Both the position numbers and the translations under genes were made by a program. From positions 14,508,001 to 14,572,000 of the forward strand of contig OX597841.1 in NCBI GenBank assembly GCA_951406725.2: a DNA stretch of 64,000 nucleotides. Direction: 5' to 3'. Below, piece by piece: positions 1 through 55,576 of this stretch. Below the pieces are notes generated by a model, which worked only from the letters and a program-made list of their open reading frames with translations, was not told the DNA's origin and made no database searches. The stretch's first letter is position 1. Every line of letters begins with the position of its first letter. This DNA comes from Octopus vulgaris (taxonomy: Eukaryota).

Positions 1-319
1 TGCATTATATAAGACGAGCATCGACCACTTATCGATTTTACCCTAAACATGGGCGAACTAACTGGGACCAAGAGATTTCCAAGCAAAAGAAGGCGTGTGC
101 GGCGACGGAGGGACACAGCCAACACGTACGTCTAGAAGGTACTACATACATATAGACTATGAAGAAATTTATTATATATACACACACAGATACACACATA
201 CATATATCATAAAACTAGTGTAAGATGAGGTGATCTATGTGAGCTACCGAATACTGCGCAATTGAGTCGAGTGACCACCACTACTGCAACTACTACGTTT
301 ATTAATGTTTAAAACAGTA

Positions 320-1175
320 AGACCGGCCGCGTATACATGTGGATAAGGAACCGGCTGTGCATAGCCGACTGCAGTGTGTGTATATATATAACTGGTTATA
401 TATATGTGTGTGTGTATAGCTGATTGTATGTGTATGGGTATTTAGCCGGCTGCGTGTAAGTCGATATGTAGCCGGCTGCGTAGCTGTGTGCGTGTGTTAT
501 GTGAGGGTGAGTGTTATGTGTGGATATTTGGCCGGCTGTACGTATGTGGGTGTATGTTGCTGGTTGTGTATGTACGTGTGGGATAAGTTGCTGACTGCGT
601 GTACGTGTGGATATTTAGCCGGCTGTGTGTATGCAGATACGTAGCCGACTGTGTATATGTAAATGTAGCTCTGTATGTGTGTGTGTTTGAGGAGATGTGT
701 TATGTATGGATATTTGACCGGCTGTGGGAATACGTTGCTAGCTGCACATATGTGCGAATACGTTGCCGGTTGTATATATGTGTGGATATTTAGCCGGCTG
801 TGTAGTATGTACGTGTGTATACGTTGCTGACTGCGTATATATGTGGATATTTAGCCGGCAGTGTGTATGTATGTGTGGATATTTAGCCGGCTGTATGTAT
901 ACGTTGCTGACTGCGTATATATGGGGATATGTAGCCGGCAGTGTGTATGTAGCTATGTAGCCGGCTGTGTGAATACGTTGCTATCTCTGCATATGTGCGA
1001 ATATATTGCCGGTTGTATATACGTGTGGATATCTAGCCGGCAGTGTGTATGCGTGGCGTGTATGTATATGTGTGTGTATATATAGTCTTTATTCGTCTAT
1101 ATAACCAGCTGTGGTAGAATAGTATTTGTTAAACCGGCTGCGTCATATGTTGAGCTGGCGTGGAGCCGGATGTGG
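320..1175. repeat. Degenerate minisatellite with recurring GGATATTTAGCCGGCTG / ACGTTGCTGACTGCG motifs in a (TG/TA) matrix
   Basis: TAGCCGGC(T/A)G recurs many times at irregular spacing. Confidence 0.75.
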
Positions 1176-1541
1176 TACGTGTGTGTGTAGATGCGGGTGT
1201 ATATGAACAGCCTTACCAGCCAGGCTCAATGACCGGCTTACATGTGTGTGTGTGTGTGAGAGAGAGAGGCCATACAAGTCTTCCTCTTGGTTCAGGCATT
1301 GGACTGCGGCGGCCACGCTGGAGCATCACTAAAGAACTTTAATGCAACGAATCGACCCCTAATACCTTTTATTTTTTTAGAAAAAAAAAAGCCTGGCACT
1401 TATTTTATCAGTTCACGTATGTGGAAATGCTGAACTGCTAAGTTACGGGAACAAACCAAGACCGGTTGTCGAGCAATGGCGAGGGACGAACAGACATGTG
1501 TATGCACCTATGTGTATGTGTGTAAATATGTATTATATATA

Positions 1542-1572
<31 letters not shown>

Positions 1573-2673
1573 AATGACTATATTAACACACATATTTCGG
1601 TGTATGGGAGCATATTTGGACAGCCTTGAATGTGTATGCATGTACGTTTATGTATGTATATATATATATATATATTATATATATATACATATATACACAC
1701 ACACACATATACATACATACACATTCATAAATGTAAAGCCGCCTAAGCCAGTGTGTATACATATATTCACATGTGTCTGTATGTATGTATGTTTCCTATT
1801 TGCCAGTAAATTTTGAAGGAAAGGTGGGACCCCGAAAATGACGAAAGGCAAAGTTGACCCCGACGTTGTTTGAACTAAGAACGTCAAACGGCCGGAAGAA
1901 ATGCCGCGAAGCATTTTTATCCGGCAAATCAACGATTTTCCAGCCGCCGCCTTAGTGTATACATCCGTACATTGTGTGTTTGTGTGTGTGTGTATATATT
2001 ATATATATTTACACAATTGTCTTCACTTAGCTAATATTGTGTGTATGTATGTATGTGTGTGTGTGTGTGCGTGTTTCGTCCCAACTCAATTAAGACAAGC
2101 CTTGCCTTTCACCGTCTCCTCTCCCTCCTTCCCACCGCCAACGCACACAGAAACCTTTATTTCCCGCCACAAAAACACCATTTCTTCCGGTCTGGTCTAT
2201 CAAGTTGGCTTTCTCCCGCCCCCCCCCCTCTTCTATCTTCACAAGCAAACCAGGACACCCCTCCCCCCTCTTAACATAACTATCGTTCTCTTCAACGTTG
2301 CAGTGGTGGTAGGGACGGCGGAGATATATATATATATATATATATATGATAATGGTATGAAATCCTGGTACCGACGACACAGCACAAAAAAAAAAAAAAA
2401 GCCAAAAAAAACACCTCCATACCACAAAATCTCCTCCCGCGACCCCCACACAAGAAGGACGGCGGTGTTGGCGACAAAAGGAATGTTGCATTGAGAGAGG
2501 AGGGGGAAAAAGACTAGTAGCAGTAATGATACAACTACTACTACCACCACCACCACCACCACCACATTCAGCAGATACTAGCTGTATTACTACTGCTACT
2601 ACTACTACTACCATTAGTGGTGAATGGTAGCAGTGATAATAACTGGGTGTTGGCGGACAAGAAGACAGATTTA

Positions 2674-2690
2674 GCGCCATATGACGTCAT
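2674..2690. promoter_or_regulatory. Perfect CRE palindrome (ATGACGTCAT, 2681-2690) next to a YY1-like GCGCCAT in a CpG-rich patch
   Basis: Motifs read directly; function inferred. Confidence 0.4.
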
Positions 2691-4010
2691 CGGCCTTCTC
2701 ACTCGCCGCAATTAGCACGAAAGAGAGAGAGAGAGACGAAGGGGAAAAAATTTAAACCGGTAACAAGAATTTTATCATTACCAAGTACCCCAATTAACGG
2801 TCAAAGTTCAAAAGGAAAGCGAGAAAGAGAGAGAGGAGACTAAGGGCTGAATGTATAACGACCAGTATGTTTGAATTCGGAGGGGGGAGTCGTGCCGAGT
2901 GTGCCCCCTTCCCTCGACACATGTTACATAGATATATGCATGGGAACTTGAAGGATTGGCCGGCGACAGCTATACACATAAAGCATGTGTCTACTTGAAA
3001 CACACACACCCATATATATATATACATATATATACATACACATTATGGTACCAGAGTGAAAGAACTAATTTGAATCTTAACCCGAATTAACGACAAAAAA
3101 GTGTGGTCGCCCCCCGGTCTGTCAGAAACAGTAGCAAGCACACACCCATATAACCTATATGAAGTCTAAATAAGGAAGGACCAGACCGCGTTAGGAAATA
3201 GGAGACCCAGATATATATAATAAACCTTCAGAAAAGAATTAAACCCAAATCCTTTTTCGAGGACAAATCATTTGTAGAATACAAAAAAAGGGAGCAAAAA
3301 AAATAAAATAAAAAGACAGCTAATTACGGAAACTAGCGTTAATTAGCAGCTGTTACTCTAATTAGAAGAAATAAAAAGTTGTAATAAATTAAGTGTTTTA
3401 ATTAAAGCCGGGCAACAAAAAGGCTTCTGCATTCTTCAGCATTTTCTGCCAGATGAGTTTGTTTAAAATATGCATTTTTTTTTTGTCACGCCGCTAAAAT
3501 ACAATATAATTATAGTCGAGACCCCAGCCCCTGACATGCACGTATACGAGAGGGTAATTAAGTCCCTAACTTCGATTCAATAAATTACAAGTTTTAAGAA
3601 ATTTAAATAAATCATTACCGAAGAAAAATACACATGTTCAAGAGATATGTAGGCATACCTACAGATTAGTGCCCCACGATAGTTTCTTCATAAGAGCATG
3701 TTCTTTGATGAAATTTTGCAGAGATATCGTTTCAGATGTATAAATTATAACTGACAAAATCGAAAACAAGTTAAATAAAGAAAACCAAGTCAAGGATGAA
3801 GACAACACCGGTTTAAAAACCCCTTTTAGAGAATTATTCCCCTCCCCATGTTCAACCAACATAATCGTTACCTACATACTCGATAGCGTCATCTCTGCAA
3901 AATCTTTCACAAATATACATTCTTCAAAAAGTTGTGAGGAATGCCAATCACTGAGGCACTAAAGTGGAGTTAGGCCGGTTATTTGTAGTGAAATTTGTAA
4001 TGCAAGCAAA

Positions 4011-4760
4011 TCATGTCGAAGCCTTACCTTTTCTTTTCTTTATCATTTTAGGGGATATTAATCTTTCCTTTTCGTTAACCTTTTTGCCTTTCACATTAGC
4101 AGTCTTTCGGGGCCGACCCGGTTTGCCCTTGCGTTTTCTGTTACGAACGGCTTTTTTGGAAACGGAGGCGGTTTGTCGTTGCCGACGTCGGCCGCCGGCA
4201 GCACCGGCGCCGCCGCCGCTTTGCTTCTCCTCAGTTTGATGATAAGGGTGGTCCTCAACTACATTCCGGGACACGGCGGGACTTGAACACACATTCACTT
4301 CGCCATCGTCATCCTCATCATCATCATCTCCTTGTATCTCTGCATCCATGGCCTCGACGTGACCATAACTATTAGCGACCACGAACGAAGCAAAGTTCAT
4401 CGATTCTTCGTCGTGGCTAAACCTCGATGGAGACATCGAAGGCGAACCCGACGATTTGGGCGATGATAAGGGGCTCGCACGAGGGGACCACAATTCGTCC
4501 TGGCTCAACAGCTCAGGGCATTTAGAAGGAAAGTTGTCATCCGGCACCGTGTCTTCACACGTAATCCTATTCTTTCCCCAATCGGGGATCTCGATTTCTG
4601 GCCATTCGGCCGGCTTCCACATAAATTTCGGCAGGTTTTCTTCCGACCAAATGATGGGATCCTGGGATAAGATGCTGATCGGATCATAGCAGTACAAGTA
4701 ATCGTCAGTGTTGGCTATTTTACAGGGAGACAGTTCGAACACGTCTTTGATTAATTCCAT
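4011..4760 (-). CDS. Uncharacterised nuclear protein (249 aa as unspliced ORF) with Myc-box-like motifs, an acidic tract, HCF1-type DHxY, an AT-hook and a basic tail
   Basis: Non-repetitive ORF with strong start context (aaaccATGG). Motifs LSQDELWS, DDDGEVNVCS, EDHPY, KPGRPRK. Upstream TATA promoter. Possible donor AG|GTAAGG at 4027. Confidence 0.75.
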   Translation of the reverse strand: MELIKDVFELSPCKIANTDDYLYCYDPISILSQDPIIWSEENLPKFMWKPAEWPEIEIPDWGKNRITCEDTVPDDNFPSKCPELLSQDELWSPRASPLSSPKSSGSPSMSPSRFSHDEESMNFASFVVANSYGHVEAMDAEIQGDDDDEDDDGEVNVCSSPAVSRNVVEDHPYHQTEEKQSGGGAGAAGGRRRQRQTASVSKKAVRNRKRKGKPGRPRKTANVKGKKVNEKERLISPKMIKKRKGKAST

Positions 4761-5189
4761 GGTTTAAATTAGTAAATTGTGTGCGGGGGTATATGATAAT
4801 TGTGTGTGGAGAAATTTGCGTATGGGTTCTCACAGATAAAAAAGGGCTAAATACGAGGATAATACGGGTACACAGCAGAGGTAGGTAATTGTAGGATAAT
4901 TTTTTTTTAAATATTAAAATATTCGTATAATGAAATTAATAAATTAATTAATCTTTTTGTCCGTGTTTGCCGGGAAAATAATGTTGAGTGCGTGTACGAA
5001 TATCTATGTCTGTGTGTGAGATGTATGAATTCCAGTTTAAAATTGAAGGCACAGAATCAGGAAATATTAAAAGAGAAATATGGTAAATGGTATGGTTAAT
5101 CTCCAGTTCGGTTAGAATCTTGCTTAGACCAGCGAGATAATTCACAAGACACCGTACACGGCACGTACAAGACAAACACCTGTGAGTGA

Positions 5190-5242
5190 AGAAGTCACGG
5201 CTTGCGCCAAATGCGTTGCATTATATAGAGGGAGGCGGAGCC
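5190..5242 (-). promoter_or_regulatory. Core promoter of the minus-strand gene: GC box, TATA, Inr-like
   Basis: Minus strand reads CTCCGCCTCC, then TATATAA (5227-5221), then TGACTT/TCACTC about 30-40 nt downstream. Confidence 0.55.
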
Positions 5243-6188: not shown

Positions 6189-7213
6189 GGCATAAGATCT
6201 GGTCATCAAATCTAAGTAGAGACTTCAAACTTGAAATATTCAAAGCCACAGTCAAACCAGTTCTACTATATGGCTCAGAAACCTGGACGTTATCAAAGAA
6301 GCTTGAGAGGTGGTTGGATGGAACCTACACTCGCCTCCTTATGAGAGCTCAAAATCTCTCGTGGAAGCGCCATCCAACCAAAATGCAAATATATGGGAAA
6401 TTACCACCTGTGCCATCTCTTGTGAAAGGTAGGAGAGTCCAGTTTGCTGGACATTGTTGTAGAGCTGAAAAAGAGGCAATTTCTACTCTTCTCCTCTGGA
6501 AGCCATCTGCTCACGATACCAGTCAAACCAATTCTACTATATGGCTCAGAAACCTGGACGTTATCAAAGAAGCTTGAGAGGCGGTTGGATGGAACCTACA
6601 CTCGCCTCCTTATGAGAGCTCAAAATCTCTCGTGGAAGCGCCATCCAACCAAAATGCAAATATATGGGAAATTACCACCTGTGCCATCTCTTGTGAAAGG
6701 TAGGAGAGTCCAGTTTGCTGGACATTGTTGTAGAGCTGAAAAAGAGGTAATTTCTACTCTTCTCCTCTGGAAGCCATCTGCTCACGATACCAGTCAAACC
6801 AATTCTACTATATGGCTCAGAAACCTGGACGTTATCAAAGAAGCTTGAGAGGCGGTTGGATGGAACCTACACTCGCCTCCTTATGAGAGATCAAAATCTC
6901 TCGTGGAAGCATCATCCAACCAAAATGCAAATATATGGGAAACTACCACCTGTGTCATCTCTTGTGAAAGGTAGGAGAGTCCAGTTTGCTGGACATTGTT
7001 GTAGAGCTGAAAACAAGGTAATTTTTACTCTTCTCCTCTGGAAGCCATCTGCTCGCAACACCAGAGGGCGCACACTCTCCTACCCTGATGTAATCTCCAG
7101 GGATACAGGCATCCAGCAACGTGACCTCCGTAATGCCATGATGGACCGTGAAGTCTGGCGTAGCATGGTAAATTCCATTGTCTCGACCACGGTCGAACAA
7201 TGATGATGATGAT
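6189..7213 (+). mobile_element. 5'-truncated RTE-type LINE 3' end with an internal 271-bp triplication and (TGA)n tail
   Basis: Translates to VLLYGSETWTL...FAGHC...DREVWR, typical of an RTE ORF C-terminus. Repeat units start at 6249, 6520, 6791. Confidence 0.85.
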
Positions 7214-8058: not shown

Positions 8059-8347
8059 CATCATCATCATCATTGTTCGACCGTGGTCGAGACAATGGAA
8101 TTTACCATGCTACGCCAGACTTCACGGTCCATCATGACATTACGGAGGTCCTGTTGCTGGATGCCTGTATCCCTGGAGATTACATCAGGATAGGAGAGTG
8201 TGCGCCCTCTGGTATTGCGAGCAGATGGCTTCCAGAAGAGAAGAGTAGAAATTACCTCTTTTTCAAGCTCTACAACAATGTCCAGCAAACTGGACTCTCC
8301 TACTTTTCACAAGAGATGACACAGGTGGTAGTTTCTCATATATTTGC

Positions 8348-11631: not shown

Positions 11632-12650
11632 ACTCCTTTGTATTCCCTCTTTTACGGTACGTCGCCAATCTCCACGGTTGCTGGCAATTGCTTCCCAACT
11701 GCTAATATTGATGTTGCAGGCCTTCATGTCCCTTTTGCATCATCAGGAAATAGCATCTCCTTGATCAGGACGTTTCTGATTTTGGTCTTGGCATGCAGGC
11801 GCGAGAGATTGAACAGTTTCCCGTCACTTCTACTGTGCAGAAACACTCCATCATCTGATGTCTGAAAGGCATGTGAGAGCAAGAGCGAGAAGAAGATGCC
11901 AAATAATGTAGGAGCGACGGCACAACCTTGCTTTACCCCGTTTTTTATTTGGAAGGCGGCTGATGTTGAACCATTGTGCTGTATGGTGCCTTGCATATCA
12001 TTATGGAAAGACTTGATGATCCTCAGCAGCTTTGGTGGACATCCGATATTTTGGAGCTGGATGAAGAGGCCTTTTCTACTTACCGAGTCAAAGGCCTTTG
12101 ATAGATCAATGAATGCCATATATAATGGCATTTTCTACTCTCTGGACTTCTCCTGAAGTTGGCGTATGGAGAATATCATGTCAATAGTTGATCTGCTTCT
12201 TCTAAAGCCACACTGCGATTCCGGATAGATTCGAGAAGCAAGTAGTTGTAGCCTGACCAGGACAACGCGAGCAAAGGTCTTTCCAACAGTGCTCAGAAGA
12301 GATATTCCACGGTAATTGTTACAATCACCACGGTCACCTTTGTTTTTGTAAAGCGTAATGATGTTAGCATCCCGCATATCCCGAGGGACTGTACCCTCTT
12401 CCCAGCACTGACACAGAAGCTCATGAAGGTGCCGAAGCAGAATAGTGTTTTTGCCGGCTTTGATGATCTCTGAGGGGATGCCGTCTTTTCCCGGAGCCTT
12501 GTTACTTGCTCGGGTGTCAATAGCCTTGGTGAGCCCTGCTATAGATGGCGGACTGTCAAGTTCACACATGACTGGCAAGATCTTGACACTCTCGATTGCA
12601 GCCTCAGCTACTGTAGTCTCCCGTGAGTAGAGATCCTGGTAGTGCTCCAT
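11628..12650 (-). mobile_element. RTE/BovB-like LINE reverse transcriptase fragment with internal deletion
   Basis: KAPGKDGIP, NYRGISLLS, ESQCGFR, AFIDLSKAFDSV, GVKQGC, LFPDDA motifs, joined directly to the C-terminal WEAIASNRGDWR; stop between the ORFs. Confidence 0.9.
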
Positions 12651-13013
12651 CCCTTTTCACAGCAGCACTGAAGTGTCCTCTCCAGTTTTGCACAAGCCTG
12701 AGCTATAGATAAGAAAGTCCTGGGTAGCCCAATCGTCAGGTTTCCTCTCTCGACCTTGCTGATGTAGTCCAAAGGAGTGCAGTGCATTACGTTTGGCACC
12801 AGCTTGGTTGCAGGAGCTGCCGGAAGAGTGTCGAGTCGAACACTGAACCGCCTTCGGGGCTCCACTCCGGATTTCTTTGAAGGTTGTCTCCTTTCCGTAA
12901 CCCTGGACAGGGGCCCATACCGGGTACTGTCAGCCGGAGCCAGCTGAGCCCGGAACTCGTGTCAGGCAGGGTCGTCACTCCCTGAAGTAGTGAAGAAGTT
13001 CGCTACCCACTAC

Positions 13014-17627: not shown

Positions 17628-18522
17628 CATGGCTTGATCAATAAGTATCCGGATTGTTGGCATAGAAACGAAACTAAAGCACACTGAGTGAAACTGCTTG
17701 GTACAGATTGACCTTCGACTCTGTTATGCATGCGCACTGAGTTTTAATGTTCTAGCTTGCTTCCGTTGTTTACAGCAGTGCTTGGAAGAAGGTGTGTAGC
17801 GTGTGATCTTCACATTGACCATGGCAGAGAGAGCTGAGCAGAGAATCTGCATCAAATTTTGCCAAAAGCTTGGCGATACCTGCTCAGAGGCCTACACAAA
17901 GTTTCCAAAATGCTTTCATCGTTCTCAACACAATCAAGAAGATCTTGTGTGACTGAAACTGGAGTGTCTTTTTTGGTCAGCTGAAAGCAGTTTTGGCACA
18001 AACTTGGCAGACGCGGGTCTCATACCCAAATCTTCACTGATAATGGACTGAACTGAACCGTAGCTAATCTGTACATCCTCTGATAACTCACGGATGGGGA
18101 TTCGATAATTTCCCTTCACAACTACACACACATCTGCAATGTTTTTCTCAGTTCTGCTGGTTGTGGGTCTCTCATAACGTTCGTCAATCTCAACATTTCT
18201 TCAGCCATTTTGGAAACGTCTGAACCACCCGTACCCTTGTTTGTGGCTCATACACCCTTCTCCATACACTGTGTACAACTTTGAGTAATCCACTGAGCAG
18301 GTATCACTATGACAACTTTCTCTGTTATGGTCAATGCAACAATCATACGCTACACACCTTCCTTCCAAGCACTGCTGTAAACAGCAGAAGTGAGCTAGAA
18401 AGTTAAAACTTAGTGTGCATACACAGCAGAGGTGAAGGTCAATCTTTGCTCAGCGGCTTCAATCTACATGCATTAGCTTTGTTACTATGGCAACAATCCG
18501 AATACTTATTGATCAGACCGAG
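17628..18522. mobile_element. Mariner-derived non-autonomous element made of two inverted 5' ends, TA-flanked
   Basis: Both termini read ..GG..TGATCAATAAGTAT(C/T)CGGATTGTTG. Transposase N-terminus MAERAEQRICIKFCQKLG on +; IRELSEDVQISYGSVQSI..KFVPKLL on -. Confidence 0.85.
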
Positions 18523-45817: not shown

Positions 45818-45982
45818 TCCCTCTCTTTCTCTCTCTCTTTCTCTCTCTCCCCTCTCTCTTTCTCTTTCTCTTTCTCTCTCTCTCTATTTCTCTCTCTCCC
45901 CCTCTCTCTCTTTCTCCCTCCCCCCTCTCTTCTCCCCCCCTCTCTGTTTCTCAAGACTTATCCATATTTTTCTACTCCACAG

Positions 45983-46154
45983 AAATACACTCATATGAGG
46001 AACTCTCGGCGGGAGGTCTCCAAGCACTACTTATCCGATCCCTTGTGGTGGTTCGGTCTCCTCTTAATGGGTTTTGGAGAGCTGGGAAACTTCTCAGCGT
46101 ATGGCTATGCTCCTGCATCACTGGTGGCGCCCCTGGGCACTACAACAGTCGTCG
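45983..46154 (+). CDS. NIPAL2: NIPA-like exon 3 (KYTH...WWFGLLLMGFGELGNFSAYGYAPASLVAPLGTTTVV)
   Basis: NIPA family signature WWxG..MxxGExxNFxAYxxAPxxLVxPLG; AG/GT, phase 0/1. Confidence 0.97.
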
Positions 46155-46398
46155 GTAGGTGGCGCTTCTCTACTCTGCTCTATTCACAAATGACATCGTT
46201 TAACTTTAATCTTGTAATTATTTCGCTCGTTAGACTGTGGCCATGCTGGGGCACTGCCTTGAAGGGCTTTCAGTAGTTTTTTTTTTTTTAAGCCTGTTAT
46301 TTATTCTATCGATCTCTTTTGCCGAACTGCTAAGTTACAGGGATGTAAACACACCAACACCGGTTGTCAAACCGTAGCGGGAAGACAATCACAGACAT

Positions 46399-54213: not shown

Positions 54214-54406
54214 ATAGGAAAAGGAAAGATCCAGAGAAGGGAAGACAGAGGAAAAAAAATCACCAACTGTACACACGAGGTCACACACACATACACACAC
54301 ACACACACATCAGCCATGTCCACCACCTTCCCCACAACAACTACCACTGCTCTCCCCCCTCTCTCTCTCCTAACCATTCTCCTCTCACCTCCTCTCCCTT
54401 TTGCAG

Positions 54407-54542
54407 CCTCCTTCACAGTGATCTCTGCCAAAGCGGTCTCCAGTATGTTGCATCTGTCTTTGAACGGTTTCTCGCAGTTCCACAATGCCATCTTCTACAT
54501 CATGCTGCTCCTTATGATCATCACCATCATCCTACAGATCAA
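54407..54542 (+). CDS. NIPAL2: NIPA-like exon 8 (ASFTVISAKAVSSMLHLSLNGFSQFHNAIFYIMLLLMIITIILQIK)
   Basis: SxTVxxxKAV..IFYxM..Q motif of NIPAL2/3; phase 1/2. Confidence 0.95.
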
Positions 54543-54699
54543 GTACGTCGCCAACGTGTTTCTATTTCACCCCTTTTTTTTTTATATATTTTCGTATTTT
54601 TATTGGCTTTGAACATTTTTGGTTATCATCAGCATCATCAACATCATAGCCATCATCATCATCGCCATTATCATCATTGTCATCATCATCACCACCACT

Positions 54700-54730
<31 letters not shown>

Positions 54731-55087
54731 CCATCATAATCACCATCATCACCATCACCATCATCACCATCATCATCACCATCATCATCATCATCATCAC
54801 CACCACCATCATCCTCGTCATCATCATCACCACCATCACCATTGTTGTCATCATCATCACCATCATCATCGTCATCATCATCATCATCATCACCACAATC
54901 ACCGTTGTTGTCGTCTTCGTCATCACCATCATCATCACCACCATCCTCACCATCACCATGTAAAGAAATAGAAAAAGAAAAAACAACCAGAAAAACCCCC
55001 CAACAAACCCTATCTTACCCCTGCCATCATCACTGCACTAACACTCCCGTCCCCATTTCTTCTGGGGCCTCTCTTTCTCTTTTACAG

Positions 55088-55176
55088 GTATTTAAACCTT
55101 GCAATGAAGCATTTCAATGCCACCGTTGTTGTGCCAACCAATTTTGTATTCTTCACAATAAGCGCCATATTAGCTG
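55088..55176 (+). CDS. NIPAL2: NIPA-like exon 9 (YLNLAMKHFNATVVVPTNFVFFTISAILA)
   Basis: YLNxA..FN..VVP..VFFT signature; phase 2/1. Confidence 0.95.
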
Positions 55177-55576
55177 GTTTGTACACCTCATAACTTTCTC
55201 ATTATATTATTCGATTTTCTCTCTCTCCAAAAGTTTTATATATACATACGTACGTACATACATACATACATACATATATGCATACATACATTCATACATA
55301 CATACATACATACATACATACATACATACATACATACATACATACGTACGTACGTACATACATACATACATACATACATACATACATACATGCATGCATA
55401 CATTCATACATACATACATACATTCATACATACGTACGTACATACACACACACACACACATACATACATACATACATACATACATACATACATACATACA
55501 TACATACATACATACATACATGCATACATACATACATACATATATACATACATGCATACATTCATGCATACATTCA

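Follow-up and report, generated by a model that had tools for sequence, protein, structure and literature searches.

The window, that is, the whole 64-kb stretch of DNA analysed here (positions 14508001-14572000 of contig C28 in the octopus genome searched, G000:C28:14508001-14572000), contains a 249-aa open frame on the minus strand, running from 4760 to 4011 and with one match in the genome. DDYLYCYD, WSEENLPKF, LLSQDELWS, an SP tract, an acidic stretch ending EVNVCS, EDHPY and KPGRPRK follow one another in this frame, in the order given by an earlier note, which read them as Myc boxes and an AT-hook in an orphan-looking protein, a diverged Myc paralogue or retrocopy with no helix-loop-helix or zipper following. 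We found that the frame forms the first exon of a spliced gene with three exons, and that the bHLH-ZIP is encoded just outside the window (Table 1).

A three-exon gene and its neighbourhood

Exon 2 carries the bHLH-ZIP and lies on the same strand, 1.1-1.7 kb beyond the left edge of the window. Its start is preceded by a pyrimidine tract and AG, all four ends of the two introns are GT or AG, and exons 1, 2 and 3 joined in frame translate to exactly P0003, a protein of 455 aa. Because the exons splice to P0003, the frame is neither a retrocopy nor zipper-less. The downstream bHLH exon that the earlier note had set against its own reading is thus present, and three readings are rejected: the retrocopy (two introns with GT/AG ends), the orphan and the bHLH-less protein (the exons join to P0003, with the bHLH-ZIP in exon 2). 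The Myc "without bHLH-ZIP" is an artefact of the window's edge, and the product of exon 1 is the disordered N-terminal half of a Myc-like protein.

P0003 already bears the automatic name "myc proto-oncogene protein-like [Octopus vulgaris]"; it was possibly annotated from the same assembly and is therefore not independent evidence, while P0004 and P0110 come from other species. P0004 from O. bimaculoides has the same joined form and is 89% identical to P0003. Together with P0110 from O. sinensis it represents the same gene, both being labelled "uncharacterized", so that the spliced form is a database protein in three Octopus species.

Table 1. Coordinates of the features of the locus and of related loci. 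Single numbers refer to the window; residues (in brackets after motifs) to the protein.
Feature	Position	Strand	Remarks
TATA box TATATAA	5221-5227	-	from sequence; lies 23-27 nt before the 5' ends implied by the lengths of two contigs
Likely 5' UTR	4761-5198	-	~438 nt, without upstream ATG; from the contig 5' overhangs of X1 and X13
Coding exon 1	4028-4760	-	733 nt; residues 1-244 plus one base; identical to P0003 1-244
MB0-like DDYLYCYD (19-26)	4683-4706	-	p=0.014 vs shuffles; 2 changes in O. bimaculoides
MBI-like WSEENLPKF (38-46)	4623-4649	-	p=0.78, chance level alone, though in order
MBII-like LLSQDELWS (84-92)	4485-4511	-	p=0.010; tryptophan retained
Acidic run ending EVNVCS (145-159)	4284-4328	-	MBIIIb position; p=0.75 vs EEIDVV, no better than chance
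HCF-1-binding-type motif (HBM) EDHPY (169-173)	4242-4256	-	p=0.014
AT-hook-like KPGRPRK (213-219)	4104-4124	-	GRP core between basic residues
Splice donor GTAAGG, phase 1	4022-4027	-	minus-strand letters AAAAG/GTAAGG, boundary 4028/4027
End and stop of the frame as read earlier	4011-4027	-	intron
Intron 1, part in window	1-4027	-	whole intron 5,167 nt; remainder past the left edge
Exon 2	G000:C28:14506294-14506860 (L034 8294-8860)	-	567 nt; Ser/Pro linker, KRRKCM, bHLH-ZIP
Pfam HLH match	G000:C28:14506415-14506558	-	~1.4 kb outside the window
Exon 3	G000:C28:14498559-14498626 (L034 559-626)	-	68 nt; acidic tail ending SVVEIM
Second Myc-like paralogue	G000:C9:58701014-58714297 (pieces L068 5014-5058, L060 2433-2921, L069 4536-5297)	-	
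NIPA-family magnesium transporter exons (PF05653)	45980-46159; 54406-54602; 55086-55181	+	
Retroelement/transposon remains	6426-7203; 8070-8306; 11724-12656; 18204-18449	+; -; -; -	

Twenty of the 24 listed sequencing runs (9 studies) contain part of the locus, none of them recorded as RNA. Four runs from four studies (X1, X13, X16 and X4), which we guess to be RNA, were compared on the exon 2 side, and in all four the contig ends coincide with the borders of exon 2. A single contig spans this exon from border to border in X1, X13 and X16 (L054 1794-2362, 0 other letters), with 1169, 1165 and 1057 extra letters, respectively, on its 5' side. In X4 the exon is spanned by two contigs, and a loose end, read by eye, corresponds to the start of exon 3. 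The additional 5' letters would be exon 1, and the joint between exons 1 and 2 is inferred; in that case the two longer overhangs begin at window positions 5198 and 5194, below the TATA box.

A gene of the NIPA family lies on the other strand, some 40 kb upstream of the Myc-like gene. From its many short exons and its sequence we presume that it resembles NIPAL2/3. Human MYC is located on 8q, as is NIPAL2. In the available part of PMC7954304, NIPAL2 is treated as a gene of 8q22.2. The proximity of the NIPA and Myc-like genes is a possible hint of synteny. The window also contains remains of retroelements and transposons, including a tandemly repeated LINE-like 3' piece (identified by eye), fragments of reverse transcriptase and the HTH of a Mos1-type transposase.

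Myc-box-like and AT-hook-like motifs in exon 1

The boxes were scored against the reference motifs of the earlier note (e.g. EEIDVV for MBIIIb), using 300 full and 300 local shuffles for the ordered chain and 1000 shuffles for each single motif. The chain obtained a score of 86, matched by 0/300 full and 1/300 local shuffles; singly, only MB0, MBII and the HBM stand above the shuffles. The earlier description of Myc boxes in order holds for the chain and for these three motifs; MBI and MBIIIb, taken singly, are at chance. As controls, the chains of three insect-type Mycs were matched by 0, 9 and 14 of 300 shuffles, and the chain was not significant in three gastropod Mycs, one choanoflagellate row and three Mnt-type rows. 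MBIIIb reached p<0.03 in 3/3 insect-type Mycs, while MBI went undetected by the same scoring in the fly, ant and gastropod controls too. The TPP.SP degron, which follows MBI in c-Myc, is not adjacent to WSEENLPKF.

The MB0-like motif differs by 2 changes in the 89% identical protein from O. bimaculoides, and the MBII-like motif is identical in 3/3 Octopus proteins. Of all the boxes Argonauta P0005, a "hypothetical" gene model whose orthology is judged from shared motifs and not from a tree, retains the HBM alone: the pattern [D/E]HxY appears as DHPY in Octopus and as DHIY (EEDHIYH) in Argonauta, and the MB0-like, MBII-like and EVNVCS motifs are missing from the latter. The second Myc-like paralogue, on C9, lacks the MBII-like motif, and its first exon lacks the HBM. 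No box chain was found in P0005 (matched by 241/300 shuffles), the C9 paralogue (209/300) or P0007 (38/300), and P0006 is borderline (12/300). The peak of conservation that the earlier note had proposed to look for at the motifs is weak: between P0003 and P0004 the motif windows are slightly better conserved than the rest of exon 1 (2/46 vs 29/198, p=0.04), and p rises to 0.09 without the AT-hook.

Profile searches gave no match of exon 1 to any Pfam family at E<=10. Myc_N, the profile named in the earlier note, and Myc-LZ gave nothing over the cut-off on exon 1, on P0003 or across G000; named gastropod, ant and fly Mycs likewise miss, so this Pfam test does not discriminate. No match was obtained by hhalign between exon 1 and profiles of six insect-type Mycs, and a search of the PDB with exon 1 returned no Myc chain or peptide. 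The top three named Atlas matches of residues 1-244 are Myc_N clusters (0.79-0.80), which we treat as a lead only, as they were possibly read within the whole protein. Among gastropod Myc-type proteins, P0025, P0122, P0124, P0127, P0129 and P0131 have no Pfam Myc_N match, and the three that were scored have no MBII-like match. Copies of Myc in molluscs may often have lost their N-terminal boxes.

The identification of GRPR as an AT-hook core in the earlier note was borne out: K213, G215, R216, P217 and K219 are invariant in 6/6 aligned clade members, and no other motif of this six-row alignment is invariant outside the bHLH region. The AT-hook is present in addition to the bHLH-ZIP and does not take its place, as had been thought. 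The same core recurs in the C9 paralogue as KRGRPPK. Pfam AT_hook was found below its cut-off only, and in P0007 and P0111 only. A GRP core in a basic context is found in the ant Myc P0114 as well, hence the motif is not confined to octopods. Argonauta P0005 has two GRP cores and an RGRGRRP stretch, i.e. more AT-hook-like motifs than the Octopus protein. By its sequence the motif would add a contact to the minor groove, and it could equally be a nuclear import signal. A second basic motif, K.RKCM (P0003 336-341), directly precedes the basic region and is invariant in 6/6 aligned members; it is likely an import signal and contains a conserved cysteine.

The bHLH-ZIP region, its pairing and its family

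The Pfam HLH scan of G000 yielded 45 matches among 91 candidates, one of them in exon 2 (E 4.1e-08). In the PDB, exon 2 ranks Max first (E 1.7e-4), followed by the four-change Myc chain 5i4z (2.4e-4), which we take to be Omomyc, and by wild-type Myc (0.003). The alignment to 5i4z is gapless through the zipper and that to Max has a gap of one residue; the loop is one residue longer than in Max and of the same length as in Myc. The class B residues (Myc His359, Glu363 and Arg367) are H, E and R in 9/9 clade rows, H349, E353 and R357 being intact in the octopus protein. With a full basic region and a zipper, the suggestion that the protein must work without Max loses its ground. The position of Myc Lys392 is occupied by Q or T in 9/9 clade rows, vs K in 13 of the 14 other Myc-type rows. 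In the available part of PMC7226237 a basic-region arginine is linked to the choice of CACGTG, Lys392 is given as a backbone contact, and the failure of Myc to homodimerise is attributed to Glu410, Glu417 and Arg424.

The gene is likely to encode a diverged octopus Myc, predicted to be a partner of Max, a binder of E-boxes and an activator of growth genes. The 455-residue bHLH-ZIP protein would pair with Max, as suggested by the Glu retained at Myc position 410 and the presence of a Max-like exon in the genome, bind CACGTG E-boxes and activate growth genes. It may contact HCF-1 through DHPY and a coactivator through the MBII-like tryptophan, and help from the AT-hook in the minor groove may offset the lost backbone contact of Lys392. 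QHNY is described as an atypical HCF-1 motif and EHNY as the consensus in the available part of PMC7793627; functions of the Myc boxes are described in that of PMC10991803. The recruitment of WDR5 and HCF1 proposed earlier fares unevenly: the HCF-1-type motif is the better supported, and WDR5 binding at EVNV, a chance-level match that is not retained in P0005, is doubtful. The C-termini of P0003, P0005, P0006 and P0007 pass from acidic into hydrophobic residues (in P0007, for example, EEEHINVEV), and by its likeness to the motif this tail after the zipper is an alternative candidate for a WDR5 site.

Two of the three charges that oppose self-pairing are lost, and the Myc-derived protein could bind DNA as a homodimer, besides or instead of with Max. 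Positions 410/417/424 are E/M/N in 3/3 Octopus proteins, the sole M+N combination among 23 rows, vs E/E/R in c-Myc and T/I/N in 5i4z; if the three residues blamed in PMC7226237 (as far as its available part goes) are decisive, this points towards self-pairing, as does the fact that exon 2 scores higher with Max and 5i4z than with wild-type Myc. At 417 the octopus zipper is hydrophobic and at 424 it has Asn, as in Max and 5i4z, but unlike them the protein retains Glu410, has a loop of the longer, Myc type and is long in its N-terminal half. Among invertebrate Mycs these positions also differ a good deal (3 other rows have N at 424), and the pattern is not clade-wide, with S/L/H in Argonauta P0005 and E/K/R in the C9 paralogue. 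On the residues themselves, Glu410 would favour pairing with Max, while M and N, in their resemblance to Max and 5i4z, leave room for a homodimer, which we consider unlikely.

As to the family, the bHLH query found three proteins among 1895 candidates, namely P0003, P0004 and P0005 (Argonauta hians), and a profile search of 1.84 billion representatives found 106. The best non-query matches (P0006-P0008, P0010 and P0011) carry the same bHLH type as the clade, whose members with organism names are all octopods; P0007, P0008, P0010, P0011 and P0113 are without names. Profiles were built from 24 Myc-type, 14 Mnt/Mad-type and 6 Max-type rows, and all eight clade bHLH-ZIPs score highest on the Myc profile (for P0003: Myc 65.1, Mnt/Mad 50.2, Max 49.1), which is the broadest of the three and comes from a set without named vertebrate or bivalve Myc. 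Leave-one-out assignment was correct in 44/44, with unnamed rows labelled by motif and most rows recruited by the octopus profile, and 8/8 gastropod rows were assigned to a Myc profile built without gastropod rows. We infer Myc orthology from the profile scores, the gapless loop, the uninterrupted bHLH exon, the best-match status and the N-terminal remnants, and hold it likely that the gene is a divergent member of the Myc family. This part of the earlier reading would therefore stand, the retrocopy having fallen.

Compared with c-, N- and L-Myc and with Drosophila and gastropod Myc, the octopus protein has a similar long low-complexity N-terminal half, a C-terminal bHLH-ZIP in one exon, the H-E-R E-box residues, the loop length, Glu410, and an MBII-like tryptophan and HBM in the vertebrate order; it differs in the invariant AT-hook core, the replacement of Lys392 by Q/T, the existence of two paralogues, the chance-level MBI and MBIIIb and the acidic tail that a third exon adds behind the zipper.

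The clade could also be an orphan bHLH-ZIP of the Max network, derived from Mnt/Mad or Max, with convergent boxes, the true Myc being lost or missing from the assembly; we regard this as very improbable. Trees were made with 59 rows (quick search only) and with 28 of these rows. Neither of them settles where the clade belongs, the Myc rows do not form one clade in the 28-row tree, and no placement is rejected by AU tests, be it with Myc (p=0.37), Mnt/Mad (0.19) or Max (0.25). In the 28-row tree, however, neither the Mnt/Mad crown (97/97) nor Max (91/86) includes the clade (support 97/96). The HNELE basic region, as in a Mad-type row, and the acidic, hydrophobic tail after the zipper in P0003, P0005, P0006 and P0007 recall Mnt/Mad (Mxd), Max-network bHLH-ZIP proteins with an acidic stretch in this place, but the octopus protein has ERRRR (ERxRR) in place of the EKxRR of Mnt/Mad; it also has KAS at helix 2 and a basic region that no intron interrupts. 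G000 contains distinct Max-like (on C16), Mnt-like and Mad-like genes, whose bHLHs are interrupted by introns (in the Mnt- and Mad-like genes the exon starts within the basic region), whereas the Myc-like bHLH lies in one exon. At 455 aa and with its longer loop it does not resemble Max, a short protein with a shorter loop and an intron in the bHLH, and the position of the bHLH-ZIP near the C-terminus, after a long low-complexity region, is a Myc-like layout, in line with the Myc profile scoring best in 8/8.

That read-through of the donor yields a minor isoform of 249 residues, with boxes and AT-hook and without bHLH-ZIP, is highly improbable: the frame does continue for five codons past the donor to its stop at 4011, and low-depth contigs lie within the intron in X1 and X4, but a stop soon after a strong donor is the normal appearance of an exon, such contigs may equally be pre-mRNA or DNA, the database proteins of three Octopus species all have the spliced form, and the 249-aa query found no homologue at E<=1 among 726 candidates of 136-436 aa, a range outside which the real proteins (455-456 aa) lie.

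A second paralogue and the octopus Myc repertoire

The likely diverged Myc of the window has a relative on C9 that is built in the same way from three exons. The first of these is long and closes with KRGRPPK and a phase-1 donor, the second encodes the bHLH-ZIP, and the last is short and acidic. This relative has no Myc boxes above chance and was ranked low by the Pfam HLH scan; with E/K/R at 410/417/424 its zipper is nearer to c-Myc than that of the window copy, and the best PDB match of its bHLH-ZIP is c-Myc (1nkp_A). P0006, the counterpart in Argonauta, likewise bears a myc-like name. Of the 45 HLH matches of G000, 44 were translated, and among these only the C9 paralogue resembles the window gene. 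Four usable Myc-type queries had their best match in G000 in exon 2 of the window gene (2/4) or in the C9 paralogue (2/4), all at <=32% identity; a full P0097 query was dominated by its own serine run and was left out. No conventional Myc was found in G000 by this search, which scores the best candidates only, in an assembly that is possibly incomplete. A conventional Myc is likely missing from the octopus genome, which likely has two fast-evolving Myc copies, both with an AT-hook-like motif.

Divergence or duplication of Myc in single lineages of spiralians has parallels. The available part of PMC7854359 describes a divergent Myc from a dinophilid annelid, which has lost the MBII tryptophan, unlike the octopus copy, and PMC5381572, which deals with bHLH genes of molluscs, reports five Myc copies in Biomphalaria and in its main text never mentions octopus or cephalopods; in what is available of these two papers an AT-hook goes unmentioned. 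Our literature search found no paper on cephalopod Myc (supplementary tables, i.e. those of PMC7854359 and of cephalopod genome papers, and most subscription papers were outside its scope), and in PMC8384421, PMC9023564 and PMC5397853 "myc" occurs in the references only. A bolder and, in our view, improbable scenario is that octopods are without conventional Myc and have their growth run by duplicated AT-hook Mycs, in which the backbone lysine was traded for a minor-groove hook, and that the window copy is a natural Omomyc-like homodimer that binds E-boxes without Max and keeps its activation motifs.

The Myc-like name of P0003 was already known, so the interest that remains is modest and lies in the AT-hook shared throughout the clade, in the duplication and in what looks like the absence of a conventional Myc. 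The likely Myc genes of octopus are now identified; they are missed by the Myc family profiles and uncharacterised in two Octopus annotations, and would be of use in work on growth, neurogenesis and regeneration. Having gained an AT-hook, lost Lys392 and, in the window copy, shifted the zipper some way towards Max, they offer a natural test of which parts of Myc are dispensable or exchangeable. Textbooks describe Myc as an obligate partner of Max, and a Myc that pairs with itself would, if true, be a real surprise.
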